From assembly GCA_963667175.2 (NCBI GenBank), contig CAXXXF010000003.1:256001-320000 (forward strand): 64,000 nt of DNA, in the 5' to 3' direction. Below are positions 16,414 to 41,127 of the stretch, one piece after another. A model generated the notes under the pieces. The model worked only from the letters and a program-made list of their open reading frames with translations, searched no databases and was not told the DNA's origin. The translations under genes and the position numbers were made by a program. Each line of letters starts with the position of its first letter. The stretch's first letter is position 1. The stretch comes from Candidatus Latescibacterota bacterium (GTDB lineage Bacteria > Latescibacterota > UBA2968 > GCA-2709665).

Positions 16414-16506
16414 AGACGCAAGGCCGGTGGGGGGCGTTTTCGCAACCATCCATATAAATTCCGTTTTCTGAATGAGGGTAGCGTTACGCAGGCCGAAGCT
16501 GACAAC

Positions 16507-16523
16507 TGTCGCAAAATGCAACA
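16507..16523. promoter_or_regulatory. Palindromic operator-like site, consensus TGTCGCA-N3-TGCGACA
   Basis: Copies with 1-2 mismatches start at 12415, 13584, 15874, 16507, 28149, 31537 and 36208; all but 15874 lie 60-85 bp upstream of a start codon. Confidence 0.7.
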
Positions 16524-16567
16524 TCTTTCTCGCACGCAAACAGCTCCGCATATAAGAGGATCTTGCC

Positions 16568-19528
16568 ATGAACAGTCGAGGAAAAGTTGCCATCGGGTTG
16601 CTGATCGCGATGGGCGCGGTATTCGCGGGGGTTGGGTCCGTTTCCGCGCAGACCGCTGGGGACGCGGATTTTGACGACAGCGGCGAGGTGGGCTTTCAGG
16701 ACTTCCTGCTGTTTGCGGCGAAGTTCAATACCGCGAGGGGCGACGCCAATTACGACGCCAGGTTCGACCTGGACGACAGCGGCGCGGTGGGGTTTGCGGA
16801 TTTCCTCGCGTTCGCGCGGTTTTTCGGCGAGACTGTGCCCGTGCCTGCGCTGGCGCTGACCGGGATCGCGCCGTCGGAAGGGATGCCCGGAACGCTGATC
16901 GAGCTGGTGGGGCAATTTGACGCCAATACGGCGTATCAGGTGAAATTCGGCACGGTCTTGTTGCCGGTGTTCGCGCAAGACGCGGAGCGGATTACCGCCA
17001 TGGTGCCCGTGTTGGAAAGCGGGTCCGTGCCGGTGCTCGTGGTTGACCCGTCGGGCCGGGAATCTGATCCCATGTCGTTTGAGGTGCTGGCGCTCTCTGA
17101 ACCGCGGATGAACGTCGAGCAGTTGCAACAGACAGTGTCGGACGTCGGGGACGGCATCGGAAACGTGCTGGCGCCGGTGATTGACGCCGGTGTGTTTCCC
17201 AACGACGCGGACGCGGCGTTGTTCAACCAGGAAATGGATAAGCTGAACGCGGCGTGGGACATCCTCGGGCAGCGGATCGCGGCGCTGCCGCCGGAGGACG
17301 CGGCGCTGTTGACGCAACTTCTGGACAACAGCGGCGCGTTGGGGATTCTGGAGGGCCTGGGACAAATCGACTTAAGCGCGTCGAAGGTACCGGCGGAGAG
17401 CAGTTCGACGCATCAGATATTTTTTCGTGTGGATATCGTCAGTGCGCTCTTGGGCTATGCCGCCGACGTGACCATGGCATTGACGATAGCGAACGCGTTC
17501 TTCCCGGAACCGTTGTTCACGAAAGCCATGACCGCCGCACTGGGGGGGTTCAGCACGTTCATCGGTGTGGTGAAATCCGGAATTGACGCGGCCATACCAA
17601 CGGATTTGCAACGCGTCAGCAAAGTAGAGATAAATCCGACGCCGGTGCTGGTGGGGGGCGTATCCGACGTGGCGTTTTACGGGGAGTTCAAGACGGAGAG
17701 TAATTTGCTCGCTGAGCTGGGATCAGAGGGGGTTGGCAAGGGGATGGAAGAGATCGTGAAGGTCTTCATTCTCAGGAAGAAAGGCGAGAAGTTCCTGGAG
17801 GAGTTACAGGAGAACCCGGTGGTGTCCGACGCGGTCGACGAAATTGTCGGCTTTTTCTCGGGCATCCTCTCGAACGTCGGTTTTGGCGTGACGGGGTTGG
17901 AGAACCTCTTTAATAAAGTAGCGCTGCCGCGGGATGACGTGCGATTGGATATGTCGCTGTACCGTCTCAGCGCGCCAAGCATAATAAAGTGGCTAATACC
18001 GCCGTTCCCCGCCGAAGAGATTGACAAGATGTTGCGCGTTCTGGAAAGAGTCGGAATTGACGTGGTTTCCGAATCGGTGGAGGTCGTGGATCGTGACGAC
18101 GACGTGAATGAAGACGTGGCGGTGTATGATCCTGCAAAGGTTCAACTGACGGGAAAGACAGCGGGCGTGATGCGGCTGAAGATGCGGGCATTTCGGTTTG
18201 TGGAGCCGGGAGGCGAGTCGGGTGATGAGCCGGGAGAAGAAAACAGGAGTTTTTGGGGCCGTGTGTGGGATCGCGCGAAGCAAATCGCGGCAATTCCGTT
18301 GGACTTTCTGAAAAACCTTCATCCTATCTTTCGATTTTCCAATTCGATGGAGCGTCTGGATCCAGTGTACGTTGAATTTGCGGTGAAGGAGCCCGGGTCC
18401 GACGTCGAGGGACCCCTCGAGGTCGAGTCGATACGTAGACTGACCAACTTCAACAGTGGCAATGTCAAGGATTACCAATGGTCGCCGGACGGTCGTCATA
18501 TCGCATTCGATCTGGTTTTTTACGACGAACGCATCGAAAGAGACCGAGAGATCTACGTGGTTGGATTGGACGGGAGTAATCCTCGCAACCTGACCAACAG
18601 CGATTCCTTGGACACAGGTCTCGTTTGGTCTCCTGACAGCCGCCACATTGCCTTCTACTCCAACCGGGACGGCAATACGGAGATCTACCTGATAGGATCG
18701 GACGGGAGCGACCTGCGCAACCTGACCAACAATGACGCCCCGGACGGACATCCCTCGTGGTCGCCTGACGGGCGGCACATCGCCTTTACATCCAAACGCG
18801 ACGGCGACGGCGAGATCTACGTGATGCGTTCGGACGGGAGCAGGCTGCGCAACCTGAGGTACCTCCGCCTTAGCTCTGAATTCTCTCCCGTTTGGTCGCC
18901 GGACGGCCGGCACATCGCGTGCTCATCCTATCGCGACCGCAAACACGAGATCCGCGTGATAGGATCGGACGGGAGGAACCAGCGCAGATCGTCAAACAGC
19001 CACTACCCATTGTGGCCATTCTGGTCGCCGGACGGCAGTCATATCGCCTTCGAATTTTACAACGACCGCTCAAGAGATCGCGAGATTCGCATATTGAGAT
19101 TGGACCCGCACAAATGGGTCACAATGTACCAGTTTTCTAATTCGTTTATTCAACTCAGTTGGTCGCCGGACGGTAGTCATATCGCCTTCGTTAACAAAGC
19201 CACGAGAGGCAGCCGGGCGGGAACCTCTAGCATCAACGTAGCGAGATCGGACGGTAGCGGCAGGTTCAACCTGACAGAGAATGCTACCTCGAGAAACCAT
19301 TGGCCCGTCTGGTCGCCCGATGGCCGGCACATCGCATACGTCTCCCGAAGCGGTAGTTACTTTGCGATTCACATGATGAGGTCGGATGGGAGCGACCTGC
19401 GCAGACTGACCAGCTACGTTGCCTACGACCAGAGGCCCTCGTGGTCTCCTGATGGCCGGCACATCGCCTTCGGTTCCGAGCGCGACCGCGATCTCTACCT
19501 GATCACATTTAAGGGCGGCGGACAATAG
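16568..19528 (+). CDS. Array protein A: signal peptide, dockerin-like EF-hand pair, IPT/TIG, helical region, PD40/TolB-like beta-propeller
   Basis: 986 aa; DFDDSGEVGFQDF / DLDDSGAVGFADF repeat; 8 WSPD repeats; ends GGGQ. Confidence 0.9.
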   Translation: MNSRGKVAIGLLIAMGAVFAGVGSVSAQTAGDADFDDSGEVGFQDFLLFAAKFNTARGDANYDARFDLDDSGAVGFADFLAFARFFGETVPVPALALTGIAPSEGMPGTLIELVGQFDANTAYQVKFGTVLLPVFAQDAERITAMVPVLESGSVPVLVVDPSGRESDPMSFEVLALSEPRMNVEQLQQTVSDVGDGIGNVLAPVIDAGVFPNDADAALFNQEMDKLNAAWDILGQRIAALPPEDAALLTQLLDNSGALGILEGLGQIDLSASKVPAESSSTHQIFFRVDIVSALLGYAADVTMALTIANAFFPEPLFTKAMTAALGGFSTFIGVVKSGIDAAIPTDLQRVSKVEINPTPVLVGGVSDVAFYGEFKTESNLLAELGSEGVGKGMEEIVKVFILRKKGEKFLEELQENPVVSDAVDEIVGFFSGILSNVGFGVTGLENLFNKVALPRDDVRLDMSLYRLSAPSIIKWLIPPFPAEEIDKMLRVLERVGIDVVSESVEVVDRDDDVNEDVAVYDPAKVQLTGKTAGVMRLKMRAFRFVEPGGESGDEPGEENRSFWGRVWDRAKQIAAIPLDFLKNLHPIFRFSNSMERLDPVYVEFAVKEPGSDVEGPLEVESIRRLTNFNSGNVKDYQWSPDGRHIAFDLVFYDERIERDREIYVVGLDGSNPRNLTNSDSLDTGLVWSPDSRHIAFYSNRDGNTEIYLIGSDGSDLRNLTNNDAPDGHPSWSPDGRHIAFTSKRDGDGEIYVMRSDGSRLRNLRYLRLSSEFSPVWSPDGRHIACSSYRDRKHEIRVIGSDGRNQRRSSNSHYPLWPFWSPDGSHIAFEFYNDRSRDREIRILRLDPHKWVTMYQFSNSFIQLSWSPDGSHIAFVNKATRGSRAGTSSINVARSDGSGRFNLTENATSRNHWPVWSPDGRHIAYVSRSGSYFAIHMMRSDGSDLRRLTSYVAYDQRPSWSPDGRHIAFGSERDRDLYLITFKGGGQ

Positions 19529-19774
19529 CCGAGAAGCAGAAGGCAGCAATAAGCGGTCAGCATTCAGCCGTCAGCTTGAATCAAGAGTCAAACCTCCCAT
19601 CCGCCCCGCAGACCTCACCCCCCGGCCCCCTCTCCCAGAGGGAGAGGGGGAGCAGACAGCTTAAAGCAAAACCAGGACACCGCGAGCGGATCACCGTTCC
19701 CCCCTTCCCTCCGGGAAGGGGGATAGGGGGTAGGTCGCACGGAAACCGCTCCGCATACAAGAGGAGATCTCGCC

Positions 19775-22700
19775 ATGAACAGTAAAGGAAGATTTGTCAT
19801 CGGGTTGCTGATCGCGATGGGCGCGGTATTCGCGGGGGTTGGGTCCGTTTCCGCGCAGACCGCTGCGGACGCGGATTTCGACGACAGCGGCGAGGTGGGC
19901 TTTCAGGACTTCCTGCTGTTTGCGGCGAAGTTCAATACCGCGAGGGGCGACGCCAATTACGACGCCAGGTTCGACCTGGACGACAGCGGCGCGGTGGGGT
20001 TTGCGGATTTCCTCGCGTTCGCGGGTCTGTTCGGGCAGCCTGCGCCGCGAGGCAAGCCCCCGGTTGCGGACGCGGGAGCGTACCAGAGCGTGGACACGGG
20101 CGACGTGGTCACGCTCGACGGCTCGAACAGCAGCGACCCGGAAGGGCAGCCGCTGACCTTCGCGTGGCGTCAGATCGACGGGCCGCTCGTCGCGCTATCG
20201 GACGCAAGCGTTGCGCGTCCCACGTTTCGCACCGGCCAGGCCGGGCATTATACGTTCGAGCTTATCGTAAACAACGGCGCGGCTGAGAGCCTGCCCGATA
20301 CGGTTGCCGTCGACGCGGCGACGATCTCGGAGGCGGCGGTGTTTGCGGGCGGCCCCGACGCGTCGTTTACGTATAAGGAGACGTCGGGCGATCAGATGGT
20401 CTTTGCGGTGGGGTCGGGCGCGCCCGAGGTGCAGGTGGGCGCGGTGATGGTCAACACCGTGGATCCGTTCTTCCTGAAGAAGGTGACGCGCGTGGTCAGC
20501 CGGGATGCGGCCGAGCTGGTCGTCGAAACCGAAGACGCCGCACTCACCGACGTCGTGGAAGAGGCCTCGGTACGACAGACGCTCACGTTTCCGGATCCGG
20601 CGTCGAAGGTGGCCCTGATCGACCTTGTCAGCGACCCCAGGCAGGTGTGCACGGACGAGACGGAGGCGTTGTGCGCCACGGCTTCGAACATCAGCCTGTC
20701 TCCCAGAATCCATTTCGATATCAATATCGAGGACGGGGGCGTCGATAGCCTTGTCGTTGCGGCCGGGGTCGAGTTCAAGGCCGATTTCGAGTTCCAAATG
20801 GAAGCGGCCGCGGGCTTCAGCCGGGAGCGCGAAGTCGATCTGAAATTGGGTCCATTGGCAGAGAAGCTGAAGGGCGCCCTTAAGTTCGGTCAGAGTCTGT
20901 CCATCCCGGTAAACGTGACGCCCGAACTGGGCTTTGGTGTGAAAGGAAGCATCCAGGTGGCCGGCAAGTTCAAGGCCGGCGTTAACGTCAACAGAACCAT
21001 CAACGTGGGCATCAAGTACAAGGACGGCCAATTCCACAACTTCGGCACGGGGGACGACGGAGACGCGCAGGACGGGATCTCCCCTGAAATCGGCCTGTAC
21101 GGGAGCGTCAATCTGAGCGCCTACGCGTACGGGAGGCTCAACGTCGGGTTGGGCAAAGGCACCGGCAACTGGGAGGCCGGGGTGGGCGCAGTCAGTTTCG
21201 GACTGGTTCCGTACGTGGGATTTGACGCTGAAGCCAGCGCGACGTCCAGCCGGCGGCAACCGACCCTGGATTGGGCAATCAGCATGGGGGTCAACGCGGA
21301 AGTGAGTGTGAACGGCCCTTATGTCAGGTTTTTCAGCTTGTCACTCGAGACGTTTGCCAGAGATTGGGAATTTGCCCTGTTTCAGGTGACCCTCTCGAAT
21401 GGGAACGCGCCCGTGAGGACGGGACCGGTATTGGTGGACCTTAATCTGGAAGGCGTCACGTATCATGGCGGCGATTTATATGCGCTCTATGCGAAGGAAA
21501 ACGGCGGCAGGGTCTACGCGGAGCGACGGAACCCATGTGGTTCATGGGAATATCGGGAGCTGTTTGATCTTGCAACGGTGGAACATCTGACAGATCGAGA
21601 AAAGGAGCTGAACCGGCGTATCTTTTACGCGATGGGGATCGCCTCTGCCAGCCCCGGTCCGAGCACGAAGATCCTATACGTGGTTGGGCTGGACGACATG
21701 CCGGTCGGGGATGGCGTGAATAGCGTCCCGAGGCTGTATAAATACCAGAATCACAGGACGGAACAGGGATGGGAGGGATGGAAACAGGCTAACGTCTACC
21801 ATTTGTCCGAAGAAAATGGGTTCCCTGTGGGTATCGCCTACGATAACGAAGGGCACTTCTATGTCGTTGACCGCGAGACAAAAAAGGTCCACGTGTATTC
21901 GGAATCCGCAAAGGACGGCATGAACCTCACGTCGGTCAGGACCTTCGATCTGGACTCCGGGAATGGCATTCCGTACGGCATCGTGTACGGCGAAGACCGA
22001 ATCTACGTGGTGGATCGCGCCGGCGACAAGGTCTTTGCATACGCCCGTTCCGGCGAGCGCGTAACGGGCGCGGACTTCAGTCTGGATGACGACAACGGCG
22101 ATCCGTCCGGTATCGCGTATGCCAACGGCGGCTTCTACGTGGCGGATTCCGAAGACGGGATATTCTATGAATACGCGGGTACGGTGACAGTACTTTCAGT
22201 ACGCAGACTGACGAACAACGACGCCGGGGACAGTGGTCCCCAGTGGTCGCCTGACGGCCGGCAGATCGCCTTCAATACCGACCGCGACGACGGCAATTCT
22301 GAGATCTACGTGATGGAATCGGACGGGAGCGACCCGCGCAACCTGACCAACAATGACGCTTCGGACTTTCATCCCTCGTGGTCGCCTGACGGCCGTCAGA
22401 TCGCGTTCACCTCCTATCGCGACGGCGATTCTGAGATCTACGTGATGGGATCGGACGGGAGCGACCCGCGCAACCTGACCAACAACCACAGCGACGACGA
22501 CGAACCTTTTCCGGGGTGGTCTTCGGACGTTAATCCCTGGTGGTCTCCCGATGGCCGACAGATCGCCTTCAGATCCAGACGCACAGTTTTTGGCTATTAT
22601 GATCGCCGGCACCGGCCCTGGAATGTCTGGGTGATGGAATCGGACGGGAGCAACCCGCGCAGTATTTCCTATAACATTACACTGTGGGCCAACAGTTCAG

Positions 22701-23236
22701 GTTGGCCTTACCCCTGGTCGCCTGACGGCCGGCTTCTCGCGTTCACCGACAAAGACGACGAGCACGGCCATATCTACGTGACTGATTCGTATGGGAGCTT
22801 TCGCCGCGCACTGAACGGCGGCGCCTCCGTTCACGCCAGTAACTCTCATCCCTCGTGGTCGCCTGACGGCCGTTATATCGCCTTCCATTCCGACGATTGG
22901 GTGTACAGAGAAGGGGTGGAAATCTACGTGATTGGGCCGGATGGTCGCAACCCGTGCAACCTGACCAACAACAGCAGGAGGGCCTACGAACGCGATCCCT
23001 CGTGGTCGCCTGACGGCCGGTATATCGCGTTCACCTCCTATGGCGACGGCAACAGCGAGATCTACGTGATGGGATCGGACGGGAGCGACCCGCGCAACCT
23101 GACCAACAATGACGGTAATGACGGGTACCCCGTCTGGTCTCCCGATGGCCGGCGGATCGCGTTCATCTCCGATCGCGACGGCAACGTCGAGATCTACGTG
23201 ATCGATCTGCAGATCGTCAACGCAGGCGGGCAATAG
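19775..23236 (+). CDS. Array protein B: signal peptide, dockerin-like, PKD-like, beta-rich region, NHL-like propeller, PD40 propeller
   Basis: 1153 aa; same N-terminus as A, then PVADAG...TLDGSNSSDPEG.PLTFAWRQ (PKD-like); GIAY..G.FYVVD repeats; 7 WSPDG repeats. Confidence 0.9.
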   Translation: MNSKGRFVIGLLIAMGAVFAGVGSVSAQTAADADFDDSGEVGFQDFLLFAAKFNTARGDANYDARFDLDDSGAVGFADFLAFAGLFGQPAPRGKPPVADAGAYQSVDTGDVVTLDGSNSSDPEGQPLTFAWRQIDGPLVALSDASVARPTFRTGQAGHYTFELIVNNGAAESLPDTVAVDAATISEAAVFAGGPDASFTYKETSGDQMVFAVGSGAPEVQVGAVMVNTVDPFFLKKVTRVVSRDAAELVVETEDAALTDVVEEASVRQTLTFPDPASKVALIDLVSDPRQVCTDETEALCATASNISLSPRIHFDINIEDGGVDSLVVAAGVEFKADFEFQMEAAAGFSREREVDLKLGPLAEKLKGALKFGQSLSIPVNVTPELGFGVKGSIQVAGKFKAGVNVNRTINVGIKYKDGQFHNFGTGDDGDAQDGISPEIGLYGSVNLSAYAYGRLNVGLGKGTGNWEAGVGAVSFGLVPYVGFDAEASATSSRRQPTLDWAISMGVNAEVSVNGPYVRFFSLSLETFARDWEFALFQVTLSNGNAPVRTGPVLVDLNLEGVTYHGGDLYALYAKENGGRVYAERRNPCGSWEYRELFDLATVEHLTDREKELNRRIFYAMGIASASPGPSTKILYVVGLDDMPVGDGVNSVPRLYKYQNHRTEQGWEGWKQANVYHLSEENGFPVGIAYDNEGHFYVVDRETKKVHVYSESAKDGMNLTSVRTFDLDSGNGIPYGIVYGEDRIYVVDRAGDKVFAYARSGERVTGADFSLDDDNGDPSGIAYANGGFYVADSEDGIFYEYAGTVTVLSVRRLTNNDAGDSGPQWSPDGRQIAFNTDRDDGNSEIYVMESDGSDPRNLTNNDASDFHPSWSPDGRQIAFTSYRDGDSEIYVMGSDGSDPRNLTNNHSDDDEPFPGWSSDVNPWWSPDGRQIAFRSRRTVFGYYDRRHRPWNVWVMESDGSNPRSISYNITLWANSSGWPYPWSPDGRLLAFTDKDDEHGHIYVTDSYGSFRRALNGGASVHASNSHPSWSPDGRYIAFHSDDWVYREGVEIYVIGPDGRNPCNLTNNSRRAYERDPSWSPDGRYIAFTSYGDGNSEIYVMGSDGSDPRNLTNNDGNDGYPVWSPDGRRIAFISDRDGNVEIYVIDLQIVNAGGQ

Positions 23237-23634
23237 CCGAGAAGCGGGGGGACCTTCATTCGGGGAAAGGCAGTGGCCGGTAGAGGCAGTGGACAGTGGT
23301 CAGCGAAAAGCAGCAATCAGCATTCAGCCGTCAGCTTGAAGCAAGAGCGAACCAATTGCACTAAGCGCCGGGACGTGGCAGGAATAAACGGAACGTGGCC
23401 CTCACCCCCCGGCCCCCTCTCAAAGGGGAAAGGCAGTGGTCAGTGGTTAGTGGCCAGAGAGAGGCGGTGAGGATATCGACTGTCACTCCCCCCTTGGGGG
23501 GGAGTCGGCAAGGCAAGGGCGCCAGCCCGAAGGCGCGCCGGAGGGGGGCGCTTTCGGGTCTACCCATGTAAATTCCGTTTTCCGAACACAGAGGTTGACG
23601 CAAGCCGCCCAGCATACACGAGGGAAATCTCGCC

Positions 23635-26600
23635 ATGAAAAACAAAAGAAAATTCGTCATCGGGTTGCTGATCGCGATGGGCGCGGTATTCGCGGGGGTT
23701 GGGTCTGTCTCCGCGCAGACCGCTGCGGACGCGGATTTCGACGACAGCGGCGAGGTGGGCTTTCAGGACTTCCTGCTGTTTGCGGCGAAGTTCAATACCG
23801 CGAGGGGCGACGCCAATTACGACGCCAGGTTCGACCTGGACGACAGCGGCGACGTGGGGTTTGCGGACTTCCTCACGTTCGCGCGGTTTTTCGGCGAGAC
23901 TGTGCCCGTGCCTGCGCTGGCGCTGACCGGGATCGCGCCGTCGGAAGGGATGCCCGGAACGCTGATCGAGCTTGTGGGGCAATTTGACGCCAATACGGCG
24001 TATCAGGTGAAATTCGGCACGTTCTTGTTGCCGGTGTTCGCGCAAGACGCGGAGCGGATTACCGCCATGGTGCCCGTGTTGGAAAGCGGGTCCGTGCCGG
24101 TGCTCGTGGTTGACCCGTCGGGCCGGGAGTCTGAGCCCACGTCGTTTGAGGTGCTGGCGCTCCCCGAGCCGCGGATGAACCCCGAGCAACTGCAACAGGC
24201 GGTGTCGGGGGTCGGGGACGGCATCGGGAACGTGCTGGCGCCGTTGACCGCGCCGGACAGTCTGTTCAGCGCGGCGGACGCGGCGATGATCAAGGATGAA
24301 ATGGGCAAGCTCAACGCGGCGTGGGGCATCCTGGGGCAGCGGATCGAGGCGCTGCCGCCGGAGGACGCGGCGCTGTTGACGCATCTTCTGGACAACAGCG
24401 GCGCGTTGGGGATTCTGGAGGGTCTGGGAACAATCGACCTGAGCGCGTCGAAGGCGGTGGAGCTGGGCGCCGCCTTCCGTCATCAGAAGTTGTTCCAGGC
24501 GGACGTGGTGAGCTTTCTGATGGGGAACGCCAGCGCCGCGACTTCAGCAGCCACGTTGATCGCGGCGGTGGTTCCTGGCGGGCAGGCCTTACTCCCGATT
24601 CTGGCGGCCATCGACGCCGTCAGCGGCGTGACGAAAACGGTCATCGACGCGATCTTTCCAACGGATCTGGAGAACCTCAGGGTCGAAATATCTCCGACGC
24701 CGGTGGCGGTGGAGGGCGCGTCCGACGTGTCGTATTACGGGGACTTTGTCACGGAGAGCGACGCCATACGCGCGCTGGGGGACAAACTGCTGGAGGGCGC
24801 CGTAGAGGAACTGTTGGACGAATTCCTCAAGATACCGAAGGTGTCCGAGAAGGCGGCGGAGGAAATCGTCGGTTTTGTCACCGGCATCCTTACTTCTGCG
24901 GGTATGAAGGGATTCGATTGGGCCCTGCGCGGCGCGACGATAAGCCCCGCGCTGAAGGACGTGCCATTGGATATGTCGGTGTATCGACTCAGCATATTCG
25001 ACGTTCTGCAGGTCGTACCGACGTTGCCGGGCAAGGAGACGGCGGACGCGATCGAGTATCTGCTGGGAAAGGCCGGGATCGACGTGACGTTCTTCGATCC
25101 GGTGGTGGTCGAGAACGAGGCGGTGGCGGCGTACGACAAGCTGAATGCTCGGCTGACGGGAAAGACGGCGGGGGCAACGCGGCTGACGGTGCGGGCGATA
25201 CGATTTGTGGAGTGGGACTCCTGGTGGAATTGGCTCGGTATCTGTGTGTGGGAGACGGTCGGGCCCGTGTATCAAAATATCAACGTCGGGACGACGTCAA
25301 CCAGCCCACCCTTTGATCTGGATAGCGACAACACTTGGCCGCATGGGATCACGTATGTCAACAACCGGTTCTACGTGGTTGATGATCGGCATGATAAGGT
25401 TTTCGCGTATACGGTTTCGGGGCAGCGTGACGCGGCTTCGGAGTTCGATCTGAATGACGAAAACGGGTCTCCGAAAGGTATCACGTATGCCAACAACCGT
25501 TTCTACGTGATTGATAGTTGGCCTGATGATAAGGTTTTTGCGTATACGGTTTCGGGGCAGCGTGACGCGGCTTCGGAGTTCGATCTGAATGACGAAAACG
25601 GGTCTCCGAAAGGTATCACGTATGCCGACAACCGGTTCTACGTGGTTGATAGTTGGCATGATAAGGTCTTTGCGTATACGGTTTCGGGGCAGCGTGACGC
25701 GGCTTCGGACTTCGATCTGGATAGCGGAAGGGCATATCCGCGAGGTATGACGCATGACAACGATCAACCCGCCGGTATCACCTACGCGAACAACCGGTTC
25801 TACGTGGTTGATGATTATGATGCTAAGGTCTATGTGTATACGGTTTCGGGGCAGCGTGACGTGGCTTCGGAGTTCGATCTGAATAGCGACAGCCGTACTC
25901 CGCATGGGATTACGTATGCCAACGATCGATTCTACGTCGTTGATTATTCCGTGGAAAGGATCTTCGTGTACAAACATTCAGGCCAGTATAGAGCGAGACC
26001 GGACCTGGTTGCGCAATCTTCGACCAGTGAGGGTCTATTGACGCCTGGCCAATCATTCACCCTCTCCGCGACTGTAGAGAACGTCGGGGACGCGCAAGCG
26101 TCTTCCACAATGCTGCGCTACTATTACTCCGACGATTGGTCTATTTCGCAGAACGACACGCTTCTGGGGTCGGCTGCAGTGGGCGTTCTGAATCCATCGG
26201 ACAGGAGCCTTGTCAACGTAACGTTAACCGCGCCATCGGCAGTAGGTACGTATTACTACCGGGTATACGCAGACGTGGTTGATGGGGAAGAAATAACGTA
26301 TAACAACCCTTCGGTGGCATCGGTTGTCTCCGTATCTTCGGAGACGCCTGCAACCACGGGTTTTTCTATCGCTACCAACGTTCATCCAACCAGCATCACG
26401 TATGCCAACGACCGATTTTACGTGGCTGATTTGCTTAAAAGAAAAATCTTCGCGTACATGAGTTCGGGCGAGCGTGATGAGGCTTCGGACTTCGGGGTCA
26501 ATGTTGCTTCGTATGGTATCACGTATGCCAATGACCGATTCTTTGTCGCCGGTCCCGACACCGTCTATGCGTACACGGTCTCCGGTCAGCGAGATGCGGC

Positions 26601-27693: not shown

Positions 27694-28212
27694 CCGCGAT
27701 GCGGGGGGGACCGTTACCAGGGGAAAGGCAGTGGCGAGGAAAAGCAGTGGTTAGTGGCCAGTGGTCAGTAAAGGCAGCGTTCAGCCGTCAGCCACGACCT
27801 GTTGACGATAGGGATTGGCGATAACAATTCAGGAAAATCCGTCGGTTTGTAGGGGCGGTTCGCGAACCGCCCGATTTGCGCAGAGCTCTCCCCCCGGCCT
27901 GCCTGCGCCTGCCTGTCCCGTTGGAGCGGCAGACAGGTCGAGTTCTGCTCGGCAGGCAGGCCCCCTCTCCCAAAGGGAGAGGGGGAGCAGGACAGAGTGT
28001 ATATCCATTCGCGGATGCCTGGATCTTGTGTAGGGGCGGCCGGCCGGTCGCCCCTACAGATGCGACGCCGGTGGGGGGCGTTTTCGCAACCATCCATATA
28101 AACTCCGTTTTCTGAACACAGAGGTTGACGCAGGCCGAAGCCGACAACTGTCGCAAAATGCGTCATCTTAACTCGCACGGAAACCGCTCTCCATACAAGA
28201 GGAGGTCTCGCC

Positions 28213-30927: not shown

Positions 30928-31021
30928 CCGCGAAGCAGGGTGACCCTCATCGGGGGAAAGGCAGTGGTCGGGAAAAGCAGTGGCCAGTGATCAGTGGTCA
31001 GTAAAGGCAACGGCCAGTAAA

Positions 31022-31147
31022 GGCGGTGAGAGGGTAGACGGGAGATGATATGAATGCCTCGTGCGGTTTCATTGCTTGCCAAGGGCATAACGGGAAGGTC
31101 ATCCGGGCAAGGATCTCTTCTCCCGTCTAACGTCTTCCGTCTCACCG
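31022..31147. repeat. Long inverted-repeat (MITE-like) element, copy 2
   Basis: CGGTGAGAGGGTAGACGGGAGA ... TCTCCCGTCTAACGTCTTCCGTCTCACCG; shares GCCTCGTGCGGTTTCATT with copy 1. Confidence 0.65.
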
Positions 31148-31600
31148 ATTTCAGGTTTTTCATCTACCGTCCACATGCGGCTTACCGCCGTCGGGCGACC
31201 TCTCCCCCCGTCCCCCTCTCCCAGGGGGAGAGGGGGAGAACAGCAGGCGTTTCGCCATCAAGAGACTTCGCGTGTGGTTGTTGCGTCACTCGAAGCGTGT
31301 TCAGCAGGCGACAATTCCCCCCTTCCCCCCGGGAAGGGGGAAAGGGGGTAGGTCTGGGAGGCGGTGAGAGGGGGAGAAAACCGGGCGAGGGTATCGACTA
31401 TCACTCCCCCCTTGGGGGGGAGTCGGCAAGGCAAGGGCGCCAGCCCGAAGGCGCGCCGGTGGGGGGCGTTTCCGCAACCATCCATATAAATTCCGTTTTC
31501 TGAACACAGAGGTTGACGCAAGCCGTAACCGACAACTGTCGCAAAATGCGTCACCTGATCTCGCACGCAAACCGCTCTCCATACAATAGGAGGTCTCGCC

Positions 31601-34600
31601 ATGAATAATAAAAGAAAAGTCGTCATCGGGTTGCTGATCGCGATGGGCGTTGTCTTCGCGGGCGCCGGGTCCGTTTCCGCGCAGACCGCTGCGGACGCGG
31701 ATTTTGACGACAGCGGCGAGGTGGGCTTTCAGGACTTCCTGCTGTTTGCCGCGAAGTTCGGGCTGAGCCAGGGCGACGCGGATTACGACGCCAGGTTCGA
31801 CCTGGACGGCAGCGGCGCGGTGGGGTTTGCGGATTTCCTCGCGTTCGCGCGGCTGTTCGGCGAGACTGTGCCCGTGCCTGCGCTGGCGCTGACCGGGATC
31901 GCGCCGTCGGAAGGGATGCCCGGAACGCTGATCGAGCTGGTGGGGCAGTTCGACGCCGATACGGCGTATCAGGTGAAATTCGGCACGGTCTTGTTGCCGG
32001 CGTTCGCGCAGAACGCGGAGCGGATGACCGCCATGGTACCCGTGTTGGAAAGCGGGTCCGTGCCGGTGCTCGTGGTTGACCCGTCTGGCCGGGAGTCTGA
32101 GCCCACGTCGTTTGAGGTGCTGGCGCTCCCCGAGCCGCGGATGAACCCCGAGCAACTGCAACAGGCGGTGTCGGGGGTCGGGGACGGCATCGGAAACGTG
32201 CTGGCGCCGTTGACCGCGCCGGACAGTCTGTTCAGCGCGGCGGACGCGGCGATGATCAAGGATGAAATGGATAAGCTGAACGCGGCGTGGGGCATCCTGG
32301 GGCAGCGGATCGAGGCGCTGCCGCCGGAGGACGCGGCGCTGTTGACGCATCTTCTGGACAACAGCGGGGCGTTGGGCATTCTGGAGGGTCTGGGAACAAT
32401 CGACCTGAGCGCGTCGAAGGCGGTGGGGCCGGGCGCCGCCTTCGGTCATCAGAAGTTATTCCAGGCGGACGTGGTGAGCTTTCTGATGGGGAACGCCAGC
32501 GCCGCGACTTCAGTGGCCACGGTGATCGCGGCGGTGGTGCCCGGCGGGCAGGCCCTGGTCCCGATTCTGGCGGCCATCGACGCCGTCAGCGGCGCGACGA
32601 AAGCGGTCATCGACGCGATCTTCCCAACGGATCTGGAGAACCTCAGGGTCGAAATATCTCCGACGCCGGTGCCGGTGGAGGGCACGTCCGACGTGTCGTA
32701 TTATGGGGACTTTGTCACGGAGAGCGACGCCATCAGCGCGCTGGGGGGAAAATTGCTGGAGGACGCCGTAGAGGAACTGTTGGAAAGCTTCCTCAAGATA
32801 CCGAAGGTGTCCGAGGCCGCGGCGGAGGAAATCGTGGGCTTCGTCTCCGGCATCCTGTCGGCTGCGGGTATGAAGGGATTCGATTGGATCACGGGCGGCG
32901 CAACGATAAGCCCCGCGCTGAAGGACGTGCCATTGGATATGTCGGTGTATCGACTCAGCGTATTCGATCTCCTGCAGGTCATACCGACGTTGCCTGGCAA
33001 AGAGACGGCGGACGCGATCGAGTATCTGCTGGGAAAGGCCGGGATCGACGTGACGTTCTTCGATCCGGTGGTGGTCGAGAACGAGGCGGTGGCGGCGTAC
33101 GACAGGCTGAATGCTCGGCTGACGGGAAAGAGGTCGGGCGCGACGCGGCTGACGGTTCGGGCAATACGATTTGTGGAGTGGGACTCCTGGTGGAATTGGC
33201 TCGGTGTCTGCAAGTGGGAGACGGTCGGGCCCGTGTATCCGAACGTCAACGTCGGGACGATGGCAACCAGCTCTCCCTTCTATCTGGATGACCAAAACGA
33301 CCGTCCGAGAGGTATCACGTATGCCAACAACCGGTTCTACGTGATTGGTGGCAAGGTCTATGCGTATACGGCTGCGGGTCAGCGTGACGCGGCTTCAGAC
33401 TTCTATATGGATCACGTGTTTCGGCGAGGTATCACGTATGCCGATGACAGATTCTTCGTCTTAGGTCACGATAAGGTCCACGCGTATATGAATTCAGGTC
33501 AGCGTGACGCGGCTTCAGACTTCGATCTGGATGACGACTACGAATCTCTCGAAAAGATCACGTATGCCAACGACCGACTCTACGTCGTTGCTGAGCCCAA
33601 AAAGTTACATACGGAATACGAAAGGAAGTTGTACGCGTACACGGTTTCGGGTCAGCGTGACGCGGCTTCAGACGTCGAACTGCTTAGACCAAATGCTCTC
33701 CCGTTCGGAATTGGGATTACGTATGGCGCCAGTGATACGTACGGTATCACGTACGTCAATAACCGATTCTTTCTCGTACGTCGCGACAAGGTCTACGCGT
33801 ACACGAATTCGGGTCAACGTGACGCGGCTTCAGACTTCGATCTGGATTTCCGGATCACCCATTTTGTTTCCGCCGTATATCCGCGAGGGATCACGTCTGC
33901 GAACAACCGATTCTATGTCCTCGAAGACTCCACCCATATCGATGCAGACCCCAATGACAGGGTCGGCGTATACGAGTATTCCGGCCGGTTTCGTCCGAGT
34001 CCCGACCTGATTGTGAATACGTCCGTCAGAGAAAAGGCCCTGGCGCCAGGGCAATCCTTCACACTCTCGGCAACTGTGAAGAACGTCGGGGACGCGCAAG
34101 CGTCTTCCACAACGTTGCGCTACGTTCGTTCCGATGATTGGTCTATTTCCCAGGACGACACGCAGGGTGGCTCGGCCGCCGTAGGCGTTCTCGATCCATT
34201 GGACACGAGCCCCGTGAACGTCACCCTGACTGCGCCGTCGACAGCGGGAACGTATTATTACTGGGCGCATGCAGACGTGTTGGAACAGGAAGAAATCGAG
34301 TACAACAATTACTCGGAGGTCGCGCAGGTCTCCGTTTACGATGTTGGCACGCCCACGAGCACGGACTTTGAACTGGCGAACAACAACAGTCCCTCCAGTA
34401 TCACGTATGCCAACGACCGATTTTACGTCGCAGATTTGGAGGATGGGAAGATTTACGCGTACACGGTTTCGGGTCAGCGTGATACGGCTGCAGACTTCAA
34501 GTTGGAGCCGCACGTCGTGCCGCTTGGTATCACGTACGCCAATAGGCGATTCTACGTCGCGGATGTCTCCGGAGGCAAGGTCTACGCGTACACGGTTTCG

Positions 34601-35788
34601 GGTCAGCGTGACGCGTCTGCAGACTTCGCGGTGAGTGACAGTGCGCTCACCGGGATTACGTATGCCAACGACCGATTCTTTGTCGTTCATGCCTCGGATG
34701 ATAAGGTCTATGCGTACACGGGATCGGGGCAGCGTGACGCGGATTCAGACTTCGAGCTGGATGGCGACTTTTCGCCGTTTGGTCTCACGTATGCCAACGA
34801 TCGATTCTATGTCGCAAAAAAGCGGTGGGACAGTCGTCGTGGGAATGTGACGGTCTATGCGTACACGAGTTCGGGGCAACGTGACCCGGATTCAGACTTC
34901 ACGCCGAGGCATTGGAGTATTTCCCCTTTTCTTGGAGGTCTCACGTATGCCAATGGCCGATTCTACGTCATCACGACCATCGACAGGTATGGGCGTGGCT
35001 CTAGAGATTTTTCGGGAGCCGGCAGTTGGAGTGCCGAAGTGTTCGGAACTTCAGGAGGTTCGTTCTTTCTGGATATTAACGATGATCCAGTGAGTATCGC
35101 GTATGGCAACAATCGATTCAACGTCTTAGAATCCGTAGGAAAAGTCTATACGTACAAGAGTTCGGGGCAGCGTGACCCGGATTCAGATTTCGAGTTGATC
35201 GATAGCCATTCGGGCATGACGCATGCCAACAATCGATTCTACGTCGTCACCCGTGACGACAGGGGCCGCGGTTTTGCGTACGTATACACGAGTTCGGGCG
35301 AGCGTGACGAGGCTTCAGATTTCAAACTGTCTCATGGCGGGTTTTCTAGTATCACGTATGCTAGTATCACGTATGCCGACAACCGATTCTACGTCGTCGG
35401 TTAGCCTGATTCGGATGGCAACAGACGGTATGGTACGTATACGCGTTCCGGAGAGGTTCTTGAAGTGGATCCGGACACCGATCTGGCAAGAAAGATGGCC
35501 CGCATTTCGGGGAGAATCGCTTATGGAAACAACCGATTCTACGTTGCGGATGCCGCCGGAGGCAAGATCTACGCGTACGCGAGTTCTGGTGAGCGTGACG
35601 AGGCTTCAGACATCGATGTGATTGGTACTCCTTCCTGCATGACGTATGCCAACAACCGACTATACGTTGTCGTTTCGCGTACTCGTCAACGTCGCCTTCC
35701 TCAACTTGCTCCCGGCGATGGTTTCCCTCAACTCAGCGCAGATTATCGCTATGATGTCGTCGAGGTGCACACGCTTTCCGGGAAGTAG
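31601..35788 (+). CDS. Array protein E: paralog of C, interrupted by one in-frame TAG at 35402-35404 (truncated allele or readthrough)
   Basis: ORFs 31601-35404 and 35465-35788 are in the same frame; sequence after the TAG continues the same repeats and ends TLSGK* like TLSGQ* of C. Confidence 0.82.
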
Positions 35789-36271
35789 CCTCGAAGCGGG
35801 GGAACCCTCGCCGCCCAACACCCCGGAGGGGAAAGGCAGTGGTTAGTGGCCAGTGGTCAGTAAAAGGCGGTGATCAGCTTGAAGCAAAAGCGAACCACCC
35901 ATCCGCCCCGCAGACCTCTCCCCCCAACCCCCTCTCCCAGGGGGAGAGGGAGCAGAACCGGGCGTATATCAAGCGATGACAGTTCCCCCCTTCCCCCCGG
36001 GAAGGGGGAAAGGGGGTAGGTCTGGGAGGCGGTGAGAGGGGGAGAAAACCGGGGCGAGGGTATCGACTATCACTCCCCCCTTGGGGGGGAGTCGGCAAGG
36101 CAAGGGCGCCAGCCCGAAGGCGCGCCGGTGGGGGGCGTTTCCGCAACCATCCATATAAATTCCGTTTTTTGAATGAGCGTAGCGTTACGCAGGCCGTAGT
36201 CGACAACTGTCGCAAAATGCATCACCTGATCTCGCACGTAAATCGCAGCGCATACAACAGGAGATCTCGTC

Positions 36272-39200
36272 ATGAACAAGAAGGCAGGATTTGTCATCGG
36301 GTTGCTGATAACGATGGGCGTTGTCTTCGCGGGCGCCGGGTCCGTTTCCGCGCAGACCGCTACGGACGCGGATTTTGACGACAGCGGCGACGTCGGGTTT
36401 GGGGACTTCGTGCTGTTTGCCGCGAAGTTCGGGCTGAGCCAGGGCGACGCCAATTACGACGCCAGATTCGACCTCGACGACAGCGGCGACGTGGGGTTCG
36501 CGGACTTTGTCGCGTTCGCGCGGTTATTCGGCGAGACCGTGCCCCTGCCCCCGCTGGCGCTGACCGGGATCGCGCCTGCGGAAGGGATGCCCGGAACGCT
36601 GATCGAACTTGTGGGGCAATTTGACGCCGATACGGCGTATCAGGTAAAATTCGGGACGGTCTTGTTGCCGGTGGACGCGCAAGACGCGGAGCGGATGACC
36701 GCCATGGTACCCGTGTTGGAAAGCGGGTCCGTGCAAGTGCGCGTGGTCGAGGCGTCGGGCCGGGAATCCGAGCCGACGTCGTTTCGGGTGCTGGCCCTGC
36801 CGGCGCCGCGGATGAACGCCGAGCAGTTGCGGCAGACCGTTGCGGACGTGGGGAAAGGCATCGGGAACGCGTTTGTGCCGTTGACGGGCGCCGGCGAGGT
36901 TTTCAACGCGGCGGACGCGGCGCTGTTCAACCGGGAGATGGGCAAGCTGAACGCGACGTGGGGCGTCATCGGGGAGCGGATCGCGGCGCTGCCGCCGGAG
37001 GAGGCGGCTTTGTTGTCGAACCTTCTGGACAACAGCGGCGCCCTGGGGATTCTGGAGGGCCTGGGAAAAATCGACCTGAGCGCGTCGAAGGTGGCAGCGG
37101 ACGCCGACGTTCTGTTGCATCACCTGTTTTATCAGCTGGATCTGATCAGCTTTGCGCTGGGCAACGTCACGGCCGTCCTTGACGTGGTGACCGTCGTCAG
37201 CGCGGTTGCCGCCGTGACCGGGGTCGGGACGCTTGTGTCGGGTCTGTCGGCGGTCACCAGCATCACCCTCTCTTTGACGCAAGTTGCGATAAACTCGTTC
37301 ATTCCAACGGACTTGAAAGAGCTTGAGGTGGAAATAGCGCAGACCCCGGTGCCGGAGAGGGGCCGGTCCGACGTCGCGTTTTTCGGGGTCTTCAAGACGG
37401 AGAATGACGCGGGGGTGGGCGGGGTGGCGAGCGTGACGTTAAATGCGGCCATCAGCAAACTATTGGAAAAGTACATCAAGTCGGAGGAGATGGCGGATGA
37501 GGCGGCGCATGCCATTGAAAATTACGTCAGAGGCGTCTACTCGCAGGTCTTTGGGGATGCGGTAGGTAGTCTCGTGAAGATTGAGTTGTCGGATCTGGAT
37601 TCCGAGCTTCGCGTGCGGTTGGATATGGGGATCTACCGCAAAGGTCTGTTGGACACCATCTTTGATGTCGTGCCGGTGATCGGGACCGCAATAGGCTCGT
37701 TGCTGGAAAAGCTCGGCATTGACCCGACGTATCATGAACCGGTGACGGTTCAGGATACGGACGTGGCGACGTATCAACCGAGGACGGATCAACTTGAGGG
37801 GATCAAAGCGGGCAAGACACTGCTGACGGTGCGGGCGTACCGGTTCGAGGAGTACGCGATTACCGTTGTTATTCCCTTTACGGATCACACGGTTACGTTG
37901 GCCAGTATCTGGAAACCGGCGGGGGTGGCGACGCAGGCGCCGTTTGAAGTGACCCGATCGTTCAACTTTCAGGGGATCGCCCATGATGATAGGGACGGCG
38001 ATTTCTATACGCTTCACGCGGCCGAAGGGCGTGGCGGCGGCGTCTGGGGCGCGCACAAGAAGCCGGATGGTTCCTGGGAGTATAACGAGCTTTTCAACCT
38101 GTCAACCGTTGGACATTTAACCGGATCTCAGAGGGAGCAGGACAGGCGTGTTTCGTTGCCGCTTGGCATCACGTTCGGCAGCACGGGTCAGTCTAACCGG
38201 CAGCTGTACGTGGTTGGGATGGAGACCGTCGGGGAAGGGGAGGCCGCGAAATACGTCGCGGCGCTGTTTAATTATATGAGCACCAGGGATAACCCCAGTG
38301 ACAAGTGGGGCGAATGGCAGCAGAGAGCCGTCTATACGCTGCCCGGTGAAAACGTCGCGCCGTTTGGCGTCGCCTTTGTCAACGGCCACTTTCACGTGGT
38401 GGACGCGGAGGCATTGCGGGTCTACGCGTATACCGCGTCCGGTTCGGGCTTGAACCTGCAGCGTGACAGGACCTTCAATCTGGTTTCGGACAATGGTTTT
38501 CCCGGAGGCATCACGTACGCCGACGGGCGCTTCTACGTGGTGGACCTGGAGGACGAAAGGATCTACGCGTACGCGCGCTCCGGAGATTCGTGGGCGCATG
38601 ACGCCTTGTCAGATTTCAAACTGGACAACGACAACAGCCATCCGAGCGGTATCACGGTTGCCAACGGCCTGCTCCACGTGGTCAACTCGGGCGACGGGAA
38701 GATCCACGAGTACGGACCGAATCCGGTTGTGGAATCGCTTGCGGCCGACGACAGCACCCTGACCACGGGAAGGACGCTCACGCTGCGGGCCGTGATTCGC
38801 AACCGGGGCATTGCGGCGGGGCCTTCGGGCACGTTGCGGGTTTACCGACGCACCCATACACGAATGGCGGGTACCGAGTGGTGGAATCCTGGACGTGCGA
38901 TGGAAATCGCCACGAACGACTTCAACGGTCTCAAGCCGGGAGAAGCAAGGGCCCAAACGATCGACCTGGGGGCGCCGAAAGAAGGGAGGTACGATTACTA
39001 CGCGTGCGTGACGGACGACGAAGGCGCGGATCGCAATTGCTCGAAGGAGGTGGGCGTGTCGGTTGTGTTCGGCGGCGCGCCGGCGCCCGAGGGCGTTGCG
39101 GTCTATCGTCTGGACCCTGACAACGGTCTTCCGGCGGGTGTCACCTCTGCCGAGGGCGAATTCTACGTGGTGGACGCGGATTCCACGGTCTACGCGTATG

Positions 39201-40771
39201 ACTCCAGCTGGAACCGGGCTTCGAGTTCAGACTTCAAACTGACCGCCGCCAACGGTTTCCCGGAAGGGATCGCCGCTGCCGCCGGCCGATTCTACGTGGT
39301 TGACCGGGGCAGTCCTCGCGTTGCAAACAACAAGGTCTTCGTGTATGCCGGTTCCGGAACGTCGGCGTCTCAGGGCTTTTCGTTGCGGACGGGCGCCCCG
39401 CCGCGGGGTGTGGTCTATGCCGATGGGCGGTTCCGCGTGGTTCATTCGGACCGGAGAGCGCTCGTCTCCGCTTTTGCGTACGATTCCGGCGGGTTTCGGA
39501 ACCTGTCCGATGAATTCCCGCTCGAAGAAGACAACGACGCTCCGGCGGGCATCGCCTACGCCGACGGCCTCTTCTTCGTGGTTGACAGCGAGTTTGAGAA
39601 AGTCTACGCGTACGACGGTTCCGGGATGCACAAGCCGACGCTGGACTTCGCGCTGCATTCCTCGAATGCCGACCCGTCCGGTATCGCGTACGCCAACAAC
39701 CGGTTCTACGTGGTCGACGCGAGGGACTCGCTGGTCTACAGGTATCCGAAGCCCGAAAAGCCGGACCTGACTGTGGAATCGCTCGTAGCCAGCGCCGACA
39801 CGCTGGCCCCGGGGGAGGCCTTCACGCTGATCGCGACGGTGAAGAACGTCGGAAACGCGGCCTCGGACGCGACGACGCTGCGCGGTTCCGCTGGCGGCGG
39901 GGAATTCGTGGTCGAGTCGATACGCAGACTGACCAACCGCAGTTATGGCGAAATCGACCCCGCGTGGTCTCCCGATGGTCGGCACATCGCCTTCGCATAC
40001 GAACCGGCCGACGGCAGCATTTCCTCGAACCGCCACAAACTCTACGTGATGGAATCGGACGGAAGCAATCCACGCATCCTGACAAACGACCCTGCGGGGT
40101 CCATCCAACCCGCGTGGTCGCCCGATGGCCGGCGCATCGCCTTCGCATCCAATCGCGACGGCAACTGGGATATCTACGTGATGGAATCGGACGGAAGCAA
40201 TCCACGAAACCTCACAAACTACGTTGCCGGACGCGAAGAGTACCCCGCGTGGTCTCCCGATGGCCGGCACATCGCCTTCGCATCCAATCGCGACGACAAC
40301 AATGATATCTACGTGATGGAATCGGACGGAAGCAATCCACGAAACCTCACAAACAACGCGAACGCTACCGGAGACTCCCGTTCGTATATACCCGCGTGGT
40401 CTCCCGATGGCCGGCACATCGCCTTCGAATCCTGGCGCGACGGCAACTATGATATCTACGTGATGGAATCGGACGGAAGCAATCCACGAAACCTCACAAA
40501 CGACCGCAGTGCGGGGTACCGGGACCCCGCGTGGTCGCCCGATGGCCGGCACATTGCCTTCGTATCCTATAGCGACGCCTACGGCTTTGATATCTCCGTG
40601 ATGGGATCGGATGGAAGCAATCCACGCAACCTGACAAACACAAACAGCTGGACCGAAATCGAAGTGTCGCCCACGTGGTCTCCCGATGGCCGGCACATCG
40701 CCTTCGACAAACGGAGCAACGGCTCTGCTTCCGCTATCTACGTGATCACGTTTCAGCGCGGCGGGCAATAG
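36272..40771 (+). CDS. Array protein F: signal peptide, dockerin-like, IPT/TIG, helical region, NHL-like propellers, CARDB, truncated CARDB, PD40 propeller
   Basis: 1499 aa; mosaic of modules seen in B, C and A/D; ends RGGQ. Confidence 0.9.
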   Translation: MNKKAGFVIGLLITMGVVFAGAGSVSAQTATDADFDDSGDVGFGDFVLFAAKFGLSQGDANYDARFDLDDSGDVGFADFVAFARLFGETVPLPPLALTGIAPAEGMPGTLIELVGQFDADTAYQVKFGTVLLPVDAQDAERMTAMVPVLESGSVQVRVVEASGRESEPTSFRVLALPAPRMNAEQLRQTVADVGKGIGNAFVPLTGAGEVFNAADAALFNREMGKLNATWGVIGERIAALPPEEAALLSNLLDNSGALGILEGLGKIDLSASKVAADADVLLHHLFYQLDLISFALGNVTAVLDVVTVVSAVAAVTGVGTLVSGLSAVTSITLSLTQVAINSFIPTDLKELEVEIAQTPVPERGRSDVAFFGVFKTENDAGVGGVASVTLNAAISKLLEKYIKSEEMADEAAHAIENYVRGVYSQVFGDAVGSLVKIELSDLDSELRVRLDMGIYRKGLLDTIFDVVPVIGTAIGSLLEKLGIDPTYHEPVTVQDTDVATYQPRTDQLEGIKAGKTLLTVRAYRFEEYAITVVIPFTDHTVTLASIWKPAGVATQAPFEVTRSFNFQGIAHDDRDGDFYTLHAAEGRGGGVWGAHKKPDGSWEYNELFNLSTVGHLTGSQREQDRRVSLPLGITFGSTGQSNRQLYVVGMETVGEGEAAKYVAALFNYMSTRDNPSDKWGEWQQRAVYTLPGENVAPFGVAFVNGHFHVVDAEALRVYAYTASGSGLNLQRDRTFNLVSDNGFPGGITYADGRFYVVDLEDERIYAYARSGDSWAHDALSDFKLDNDNSHPSGITVANGLLHVVNSGDGKIHEYGPNPVVESLAADDSTLTTGRTLTLRAVIRNRGIAAGPSGTLRVYRRTHTRMAGTEWWNPGRAMEIATNDFNGLKPGEARAQTIDLGAPKEGRYDYYACVTDDEGADRNCSKEVGVSVVFGGAPAPEGVAVYRLDPDNGLPAGVTSAEGEFYVVDADSTVYAYDSSWNRASSSDFKLTAANGFPEGIAAAAGRFYVVDRGSPRVANNKVFVYAGSGTSASQGFSLRTGAPPRGVVYADGRFRVVHSDRRALVSAFAYDSGGFRNLSDEFPLEEDNDAPAGIAYADGLFFVVDSEFEKVYAYDGSGMHKPTLDFALHSSNADPSGIAYANNRFYVVDARDSLVYRYPKPEKPDLTVESLVASADTLAPGEAFTLIATVKNVGNAASDATTLRGSAGGGEFVVESIRRLTNRSYGEIDPAWSPDGRHIAFAYEPADGSISSNRHKLYVMESDGSNPRILTNDPAGSIQPAWSPDGRRIAFASNRDGNWDIYVMESDGSNPRNLTNYVAGREEYPAWSPDGRHIAFASNRDDNNDIYVMESDGSNPRNLTNNANATGDSRSYIPAWSPDGRHIAFESWRDGNYDIYVMESDGSNPRNLTNDRSAGYRDPAWSPDGRHIAFVSYSDAYGFDISVMGSDGSNPRNLTNTNSWTEIEVSPTWSPDGRHIAFDKRSNGSASAIYVITFQRGGQ

Positions 40772-41127
40772 CCGCGAAGCAGGGTGAAAATCATCCGGGG
40801 AAAGGCAGTGGTCAGAAAAAGCAGCAATCAGCGGTCAGCATTCAGCCATCAGTTTGAAGCAAAAGCGAACCACCCACCCGCCCCGCAGACCTCTCCCCCC
40901 GTCCCCCTCTCCCAGGGGGAGACGGGGAGAACAGCAGGCGTTTCGCCATCAAGAGACTTCGCCTGTGGTTTGTGCATCAATCGAAGCGCGTTCGGCTGGC
41001 GACAGTTCCCCCCTTCCCCCCGGGAAGGGGGATAGGTCTGGGAGGCGTTGAGACGGGAGAGGACTGCACCGCTGAGATCGGATAACGAAATGGCATGGCG
41101 ATGTCAATTTATGGAGACAATAACGCA

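Follow-up and report, generated by a model that had tools for sequence, protein, structure and literature searches.

Evidence for exchange of central domains in a tandem array of genes with dockerin-like heads from a sponge-associated Latescibacterota bacterium

How do neighbouring genes come to share one beginning and to carry different middles and ends, and which of their parts is exchanged? The question is raised by a stretch of 64,000 nucleotides (nt) from Candidatus Latescibacterota bacterium (assembly GCA_963667175.2, contig CAXXXF010000003.1, positions 256,001 to 320,000), hereafter the window, in which six consecutive genes, A to F, form a tandem array. An earlier note on this DNA had proposed that recombination between shared blocks shuffles the C-terminal modules of these genes. 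Our analysis bears out the recombination, of which we are highly confident, and indicates from the sequence comparisons below that the central core, rather than the C-terminal tails, is the unit most clearly exchanged. The locus probably encodes a family of full-length secreted proteins, arranged in tandem within an accessory island, varied by recombination and likely displayed on the surface.

Modules of the array and their exchange

All six open reading frames (ORFs) were found on the + strand at the positions claimed for them, and each encodes a signal peptide followed by a dockerin-like head with paired EF-hands. An IPT domain and a helical stretch up to the motif IDLSASK are common to A, C, D, E and F; gene B departs from the shared block at about codon 88-91, into a PKD domain. 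The sharing had been called near-identity, which proved too strong, because identity across 90-nt windows of the head ranges from 76 to 100%, is 67-77% between genes of different type just before IDLSASK, and the longest exact repeat between copies measures 144 nt. The listed modules were recovered by Pfam (PD40 in A, B, D and F; NHL in B and C; CARDB in C, E and F; PKD in B), but the three helical types that had been taken as separate are homologous (29-40% identical between types), and their alignment indicates that they are old variants of one unannotated domain, here called the core. The first inventory had also missed a module of B, a second NHL-like block, an extra Ig-like domain and a shortened CARDB in F, an in-frame stop in E and a seventh gene with dockerin and PD40, G (Dockerin_1 E=1e-4, PD40 E=4e-78).

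A permutation test modelled on the pairwise homoplasy index (PHI-like) detected recombination in the head (p=2e-4, 76 informative sites), and maximum chi-square (max-chi) breakpoints were located in two genes. The head of C is a mosaic, A/D-like to about codon 162 and E-like thereafter (max-chi 56.5 and 58.3, p=5e-4 each), and that of E is F-like to about codon 57 and then C-like (max-chi 42.2, p=5e-4; 30 triplets, p values uncorrected). Fourfold degenerate sites change abruptly where the head meets the core: A and C differ at 1/74 of them in the head (codons 28-165) vs 20/61 in the core (p=2e-7), A and E at 4/74 vs 18/59, and C and D at 5/73 vs 18/58. The step recurs in all six between-type pairs tested (p 2e-7 to 0.04) and was not seen in the same-type pairs C-E and A-D (p=0.79). 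At the border of core and tail, synonymous divergence (dS) takes a second step, from 0.14 to 0.6-1.1 in C-E and from 0.24 to 1.16 in A-D. Because synonymous sites show them, these steps do not come from protein-level selection. Nonsynonymous divergence (dN) is below dS in heads and tails, and the tails are far apart (C/E 51-67% amino acid identity; B/F NHL block 45%). On these alignments, homogenisation of the heads among paralogs came later than the divergence of the core types, and the tails were drawn from a shared pool of NHL, PD40, WD40, LRR, CARDB and VWA modules that was shuffled long ago.

Relatives outside the window give the same picture. The core search returned 17 proteins among 8000 candidates, 3 of them the window's own, with PD40, NHL, WD40, LRR or VWA tails. 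In trees of 26 rows (P0116, P0118, fragments and distant relatives set aside), heads group by lineage, with five window heads and P0018 in one clade (97/91), and cores group by type, across lineages. The approximately unbiased (AU) test rejected the window clade for cores (p=1.7e-6) and the type-1 and type-3 clades for heads (p=2.6e-6 and p=2.6e-12), so the congruent module trees that had been named as grounds for abandoning the idea were rejected both ways. By these trees, core types 1-3 also occur in other lineages, where they are combined with different heads.

Sequence pairs among the relatives show cores replaced between near-identical flanks. Both flanks of P0117 are 96-100% identical to P0006 and its core is 98-100% identical to P0014; P0015 carries the same swap with an earlier 5′ break, and two members of its cluster lie on 6.3-Mb contigs. 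P0247 resembles P0011 in head (95%) and tail (88%) with 55% identity in the core, P0249 is 98% identical to P0020 in the head and has a core closest to that of D, and P0018 joins an E/F-like dockerin to an A core. Architectures like those of F and of A/D are found again in another lineage (P0013, P0016), which speaks against rapid shuffling of tails. The contigs of P0013, P0114 and P0120 are of equal size (37,503), which by itself suggests a second array. P0021 and P0027, also on contigs of equal size (32,605), each represent a piece of a type-2 family gene and may together be one split member from another lineage. NHL relatives occur in metagenome-assembled genomes of Acidobacteria, Rhodospirillaceae and Gammaproteobacteria.

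Three genes have peculiarities of their own. Past its TAG, the frame of E remains open for a further 127 codons and has an end like that of C; because the two contigs that span the stop each show one unlisted difference from the window, in line with the background rate, the stop is neither confirmed nor refuted. The CARDB of F (39752-39916) is cut to about 55 amino acids (aa); compared with P0003 and P0013 it lacks some 65-70 residues, in frame, and is joined straight to the PD40 linker. The beta-rich module of B (362 aa, aa 186-547, 20330-21415) has no Pfam match and may be a second unnamed exchangeable core; of 52 other genomes in the order, 4 carry it, joined to dockerin or PKD heads and to different tails.

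The core domain and its predicted dock

The core occurs in 3/168 genomes searched in the phylum: five copies are in this genome, all in the array, and one each is in G003, where it is solitary and in a different context, and in G092. In all we obtained 103 clusters at 50% identity, by which the core is a widespread, unnamed domain of about 100 distant clusters. Sequence searches with the core found nothing in PDB or NCBIfam; JGI metagenomes yielded no relative and GTDB contigs yielded one. We found no description of the array or the core domain in the literature searched, a scope that leaves aside supplements and most subscription papers. A structure model with a predicted local distance difference test (pLDDT) score of 88.5 shows a helical bundle with a conserved hydrophobic hairpin and a split Ig fold; a first model from 6 input sequences was unusable (pLDDT 37). 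Top matches in Foldseek PDB, Foldseek viral and a second look in VIA were IPT domains. An RTX cluster of the ESM Atlas was rejected as a relative (0.75, below the usable level; nothing else was found there), the predicted homodimer complex scored 0.00 and counts neither way, and a crude lipobox count (32/82, without control) was not used.

The hairpin raises the possibility, in our estimate an unlikely one, that the core is a membrane-inserting, alpha-helical domain of the pore-forming or translocation type, aimed by the tails, which would make the array a membrane-active repertoire. This Gly/Ala-rich hydrophobic segment of about 50 aa has 36 uncharged residues in C and is conserved in 70 aligned relatives, in which the uncharged run has a median of 27 and reaches at least 20 in 57/70, and the 19-residue Kyte-Doolittle mean is at least 1.6 in 53/70. 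In the confident model its helices (positions 190-221 and 226-249) stand between amphipathic helices. Its dN/dS in the A-D pair is about 1.0, which would suit such a role, as would the many binding modules joined to the domain (VWA, lectin, fn3, CUB, RCC1, LVIVD, PKD and Lcl_C among the 41/103 relatives scanned). The segment may resemble the hairpins of colicins or of the diphtheria T domain; no pore-former stood among the 50 VIA-wide rows listed.

How the proteins are held on the cell is suggested by gene U of the same island. A profile of 13 U homologues retrieved cohesin-bearing proteins in 12/12 PDB rows (best E=7.9e-4), Pfam Cohesin matches 11/13 members of the U family (best 3.6e-13), and the tail of U matches FlgD_ig (E=1.4e-9). 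The genome holds RecA, SprA and PorV-like genes, three cohesins at or above the cut-off and 45 ORFs with a dockerin-like motif; a duplicated Ca2+-loop motif is visible in A-F, and Pfam Dockerin_1 matches G and relatives such as P0020. On balance we lean towards the view that the heads of A-F dock on a cohesin protein with a type IX secretion system (T9SS)-like tail from the same island, and docking would be the reason why the head stays constant. The presence in one island of dockerin-like heads with paired EF-hands and of a gene with a cohesin domain recalls the cohesin-dockerin pairs of the cellulosome type, and cellulosome-affiliated enzymes are mentioned for Latescibacteria (PMC7081726; the papers cited here are represented by excerpts). 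In contrast to that type, the cargo here is non-catalytic, U has one cohesin where a scaffoldin has several, and docking is a prediction. A second group of short dockerin-headed paralogs (343-410 aa) lies elsewhere in the genome (C4:356858-371778, five within 15 kb; C6:458110-459252).

The island, its spacers and its neighbours

The genome (5.5 Mb, 95% complete) places the window on a 578-kb contig. Sampled words of the window were present at 0.65 and 0.62 in two sponge-metagenome runs of one study, possibly the source sample; the organism is sponge-associated. No RNA dataset was among the listed holders of these words. The array and its companions form an island (Table 1), because the permease gene directly precedes the GNAT gene in 10 congeners. 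The 20 kb beside the GNAT gene were taken from 11/14 congeners (one uninformative, three not fetched); in 10/10 informative ones the two genes are adjacent and the island is absent, with a gap of about 35-40 nt (9 sequence ends; the tenth, L023, placed by tblastn only). The GNAT gene is found in 15/15 genomes of the genus.

Table 1. Positions of the array genes, of the island and of its signals in the window
Feature	Position	Strand	Description
Island	12385..42706		30.3 kb, between ABC permease gene and GNAT gene
Outer-membrane beta-barrel gene	12495..13148	+	First of island; OMP_b-brl_2 E=1.9e-11
Gene U	13669..14478	+	Signal peptide, cohesin-like domain, FlgD-Ig/T9SS-like C-terminal domain; candidate docking anchor
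Gene A	16568..19528	+	986 aa; head, core type 1, PD40 propeller
Gene B	19775..23236	+	1153 aa; signal peptide, dockerin-like, PKD, unannotated beta-rich module, NHL-like, PD40
Gene C	23635..27693	+	1352 aa; head, core type 2, NHL/CARDB/NHL
Hydrophobic helical hairpin of C core	24505..24657	+	aa 291-341, between conserved Asp and PTDL motif
Gene D	28213..30927	+	904 aa; head, core type 1, PD40
Gene E	31601..35788	+	Head, core type 2, NHL/CARDB/NHL; in-frame TAG at 35402-35404, giving 1267 aa
Gene F	36272..40771	+	1499 aa; head, core type 3, NHL-like, Ig, NHL-like, shortened CARDB, PD40
Gene G	41095..42675	+	526 aa; other N-terminus, internal dockerin, PD40; last gene of island
Five spacers	19529..36271		246-673 nt; E-F spacer counted from 35790
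Palindrome TGTCGCA-N3-TGCGACA	16507..16523		Before A
Palindrome copies	12415, 13584, 15874, 28149, 31537		One mismatch each
Palindrome copy	36208		Two mismatches

In the spacers, dispersed genome-wide repeats (as many as 60 genome hits at a position) are combined with an upstream block and an end block, both of them shared. Each of A-F has a purine-rich ribosome-binding stretch and a start codon, and the full upstream block precedes four of the six. A palindrome is found upstream of the outer-membrane protein (OMP) gene, U, A, D, E and F and was not seen before B, C or G. At no more than one mismatch it has 24 sites in the genome, 6/24 of them in the island, vs 0, 4 and 2 in three shuffles. 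It is likely an operator, still a candidate one, and its sharing suggests joint regulation of the OMP gene, U, A, D, E and F. Scans of sigma-70 promoters and terminators stayed at chance level (10 vs 7.4; 22 vs 17.5), and Rfam had no match in the window.

The insertion site may have a variable history of its own. Between the ABC ATPase and GNAT genes, congeners (L016-L025) seem to have ABC-permease-like genes in tandem, two or three in number and diverged, some only about 26-35% identical to the copy of this genome (window 11000-12384), which has one copy and then the island; this would be a second variable tandem family at the site. The island also holds a secreted-looking ORF of 187 aa without Pfam match (14957-15520). 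Elsewhere in the window we noted two pairs of tetratricopeptide repeat (TPR) genes (3967-9483 and 45957-51846; GWxTD matches in three of the four ORFs), an extracytoplasmic function (ECF) sigma factor beside the second pair (52334-54334) and a divergent pair of GyrB/ParE-like and GyrA/ParC-like genes (56595-60857).

Mechanism, rival explanations and meaning

As an engine of the variation we propose RecA-dependent gene conversion and unequal crossing-over on identical blocks of 40-144 nt and on the repeat-rich spacers, which would need no dedicated recombinase. Conversion would keep the heads alike and move cores between flanks, and older events would have exchanged tails. The proteins would be exported by Sec, bind cohesin proteins such as U through the constant dockerin-like head and turn the variable core and the propeller tails outwards, so that an exchange may alter the binding partners of the cell or its recognition by host cells, phages or neighbours. 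A bolder version, in which this is a docked, recombining plug-in repertoire of membrane-active surface proteins that pairs a swapped core with binding propellers and lacks immunity genes, is doubtful, a shade more so than the membrane-inserting core itself.

Several points weigh against the proposed account. The PHI-like test gave no recombination signal inside the core (p ~0.5), and the latest exchange within the genome dates to a dS of about 0.03 and therefore gives no sign of switching today. The clades given to the AU test were picked after the trees had been seen. The clean swaps come from assemblies of other lineages, several on short contigs that may individually be chimeric, and P0003/P0013, tried as a clean strain swap, turned out to be old paralogs with tails only 25-78% identical. 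Concerning the dock, U alone scores 0.081 for Pfam Cohesin, below the cut-off, and A-F were not reported for Dockerin_1 at E<=0.01; A-F have no T9SS tail of their own, which leaves their crossing of the outer membrane unexplained.

The earlier note had likened the locus to antigenic-variation or polymorphic-protein loci, an analogy of which the variable repertoire survives and the class features do not. By its gene content the array is neither a classical antigenic-variation system, because headless silent cassettes, a single expression site and a linked recombinase are lacking, nor a polymorphic-toxin locus. To our knowledge sponges have no adaptive immunity, which counts against a programmed system in which silent cassettes refill or switch a single expression site at high frequency. 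We hold such a system very unlikely, although the upstream palindrome is absent at B and C, E is broken, and a variant resembling E in one sample shows 26 differences over 817 nt (7/13 of those listed equal the base of a paralog). Conserved 5′ and 3′ blocks bracket each gene, much like the upstream and downstream homology sequences (UHS/DHS) of relapsing-fever Borrelia (PMC4534519). Against it stand the start signals and signal peptides of all six genes, the full upstream block of four, their single direction and the lack of a recombinase nearby. The note had seen no recombinase gene in the window, and none of the families searched (tyrosine recombinase, resolvase, serine recombinase, IS110, reverse transcriptase) was present in the window; the genome's three tyrosine recombinases are on other contigs, resolvase and PF07508 matches number 0, and the sole IS110 match on the window's contig is about 270 kb away. 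Nor did we find the features of a diversity-generating retroelement, since the 13 reverse transcriptase matches of the genome all lie off the window's contig and the differences are block-like. Three of these matches (C7:45084-46995, C16:404260-404643) are unlike the ten 463-aa intron-type copies.

The known systems share parts of this design. In Anaplasma msp2, Borrelia vlsE/vmp and Neisseria pilE/pilS a central cassette is likewise replaced between conserved flanks by homologous recombination (PMC4534519), but the array has no single expression site, promoterless truncated donors or host adaptive immunity as in msp2/vlsE/pilE, and its divergence is far older; silent truncated donor cassettes were not found, 5/5 core copies of the 95%-complete genome being in genes with full heads. 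The outer-membrane multigene family of Ehrlichia also consists of tandem full-length paralogs without a donor-pseudogene library, and its variation is attributed to differential expression and not to gene conversion (PMC4534519), whereas here gene conversion is seen and the proteins are multi-domain. Mycoplasma agalactiae vpma and M. pulmonis vsa are clustered surface-protein genes that form chimeras, duplications and deletions also without recombinase (PMC5634654, PMC4534519); their unique promoter and site-specific recombinase (Xer1 for vpma) were not seen here. Polymorphic toxin systems join a constant N-terminal part to downstream modules that recombination has made variable (PMC3482391), but the C-termini of the array are PD40 or NHL propellers, not toxin domains; adjacent immunity genes and stand-alone cassettes were absent, and the spacers are mosaics of dispersed repeats.

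Neutral birth-and-death, in which tandem duplication and passive gene conversion leave variety as a by-product and not as a selected repertoire, is improbable in our judgement. The repeat-filled spacers would promote the unequal crossing-over that it calls for, and the broken E, the cut CARDB of F and the rarity of the core in the phylum agree with it, but the same core types persist across several lineages, the pattern of same flanks and different cores recurs in relatives, 5/6 ORFs are intact and dN stays below dS in heads and tails. That mis-joined strain variants produced the array is more improbable still, to the point of being barely credible: this is a metagenome assembly with 4.75% contamination, no matching contig spans the order of two whole genes and B-F are each the single member of their cluster, but divergence runs through the copies from end to end, no exact repeat exceeds 144 nt, most of the listed contig pieces from two studies are within 0-5 differences of the parts of A-E that they match, and pieces of run X1 continue across the ends of B and E into the spacers. 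These short contigs were compared over A-E and the first codons of F, either study may be the source sample, and the listed contig joints have short sides, mostly inside repeats. The possible second array in the lineage of P0013 points the same way, and we regard an assembly artefact as very improbable. In run X2, D and E are covered but A, B and C hardly at all, which, as contigs cannot show absence, hints at copy-number variation; X1 variants on D, considered as an A/D chimera, look like another homologue instead.

The reading as a recombination-varied family of secreted proteins also connects the locus with the eukaryote-like repeat proteins of sponge symbionts (PMC9531527, PMC8163846, PMC5524777), with which it has in common the tail repeat classes (NHL, PD40/WD40, LRR), the signal peptides and the habitat; an enrichment of NHL and PD40 in sponge symbionts has been reported (PMC9531527). 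The excerpts of those papers count domains and contain no account of a tandem array, of a constant docking head, of an exchangeable core or of recombination. Where such proteins are usually just counted, this locus points to variety made by cassette exchange between conserved anchors, and it suggests that the products may be held on the cell by a cohesin-dockerin dock exported via type IX secretion. It also brings to light a confidently modelled domain that has no family name. Cassette exchange in a host without antibodies raises the question of whether phages, innate host receptors or neighbouring microbes are the selecting agent.

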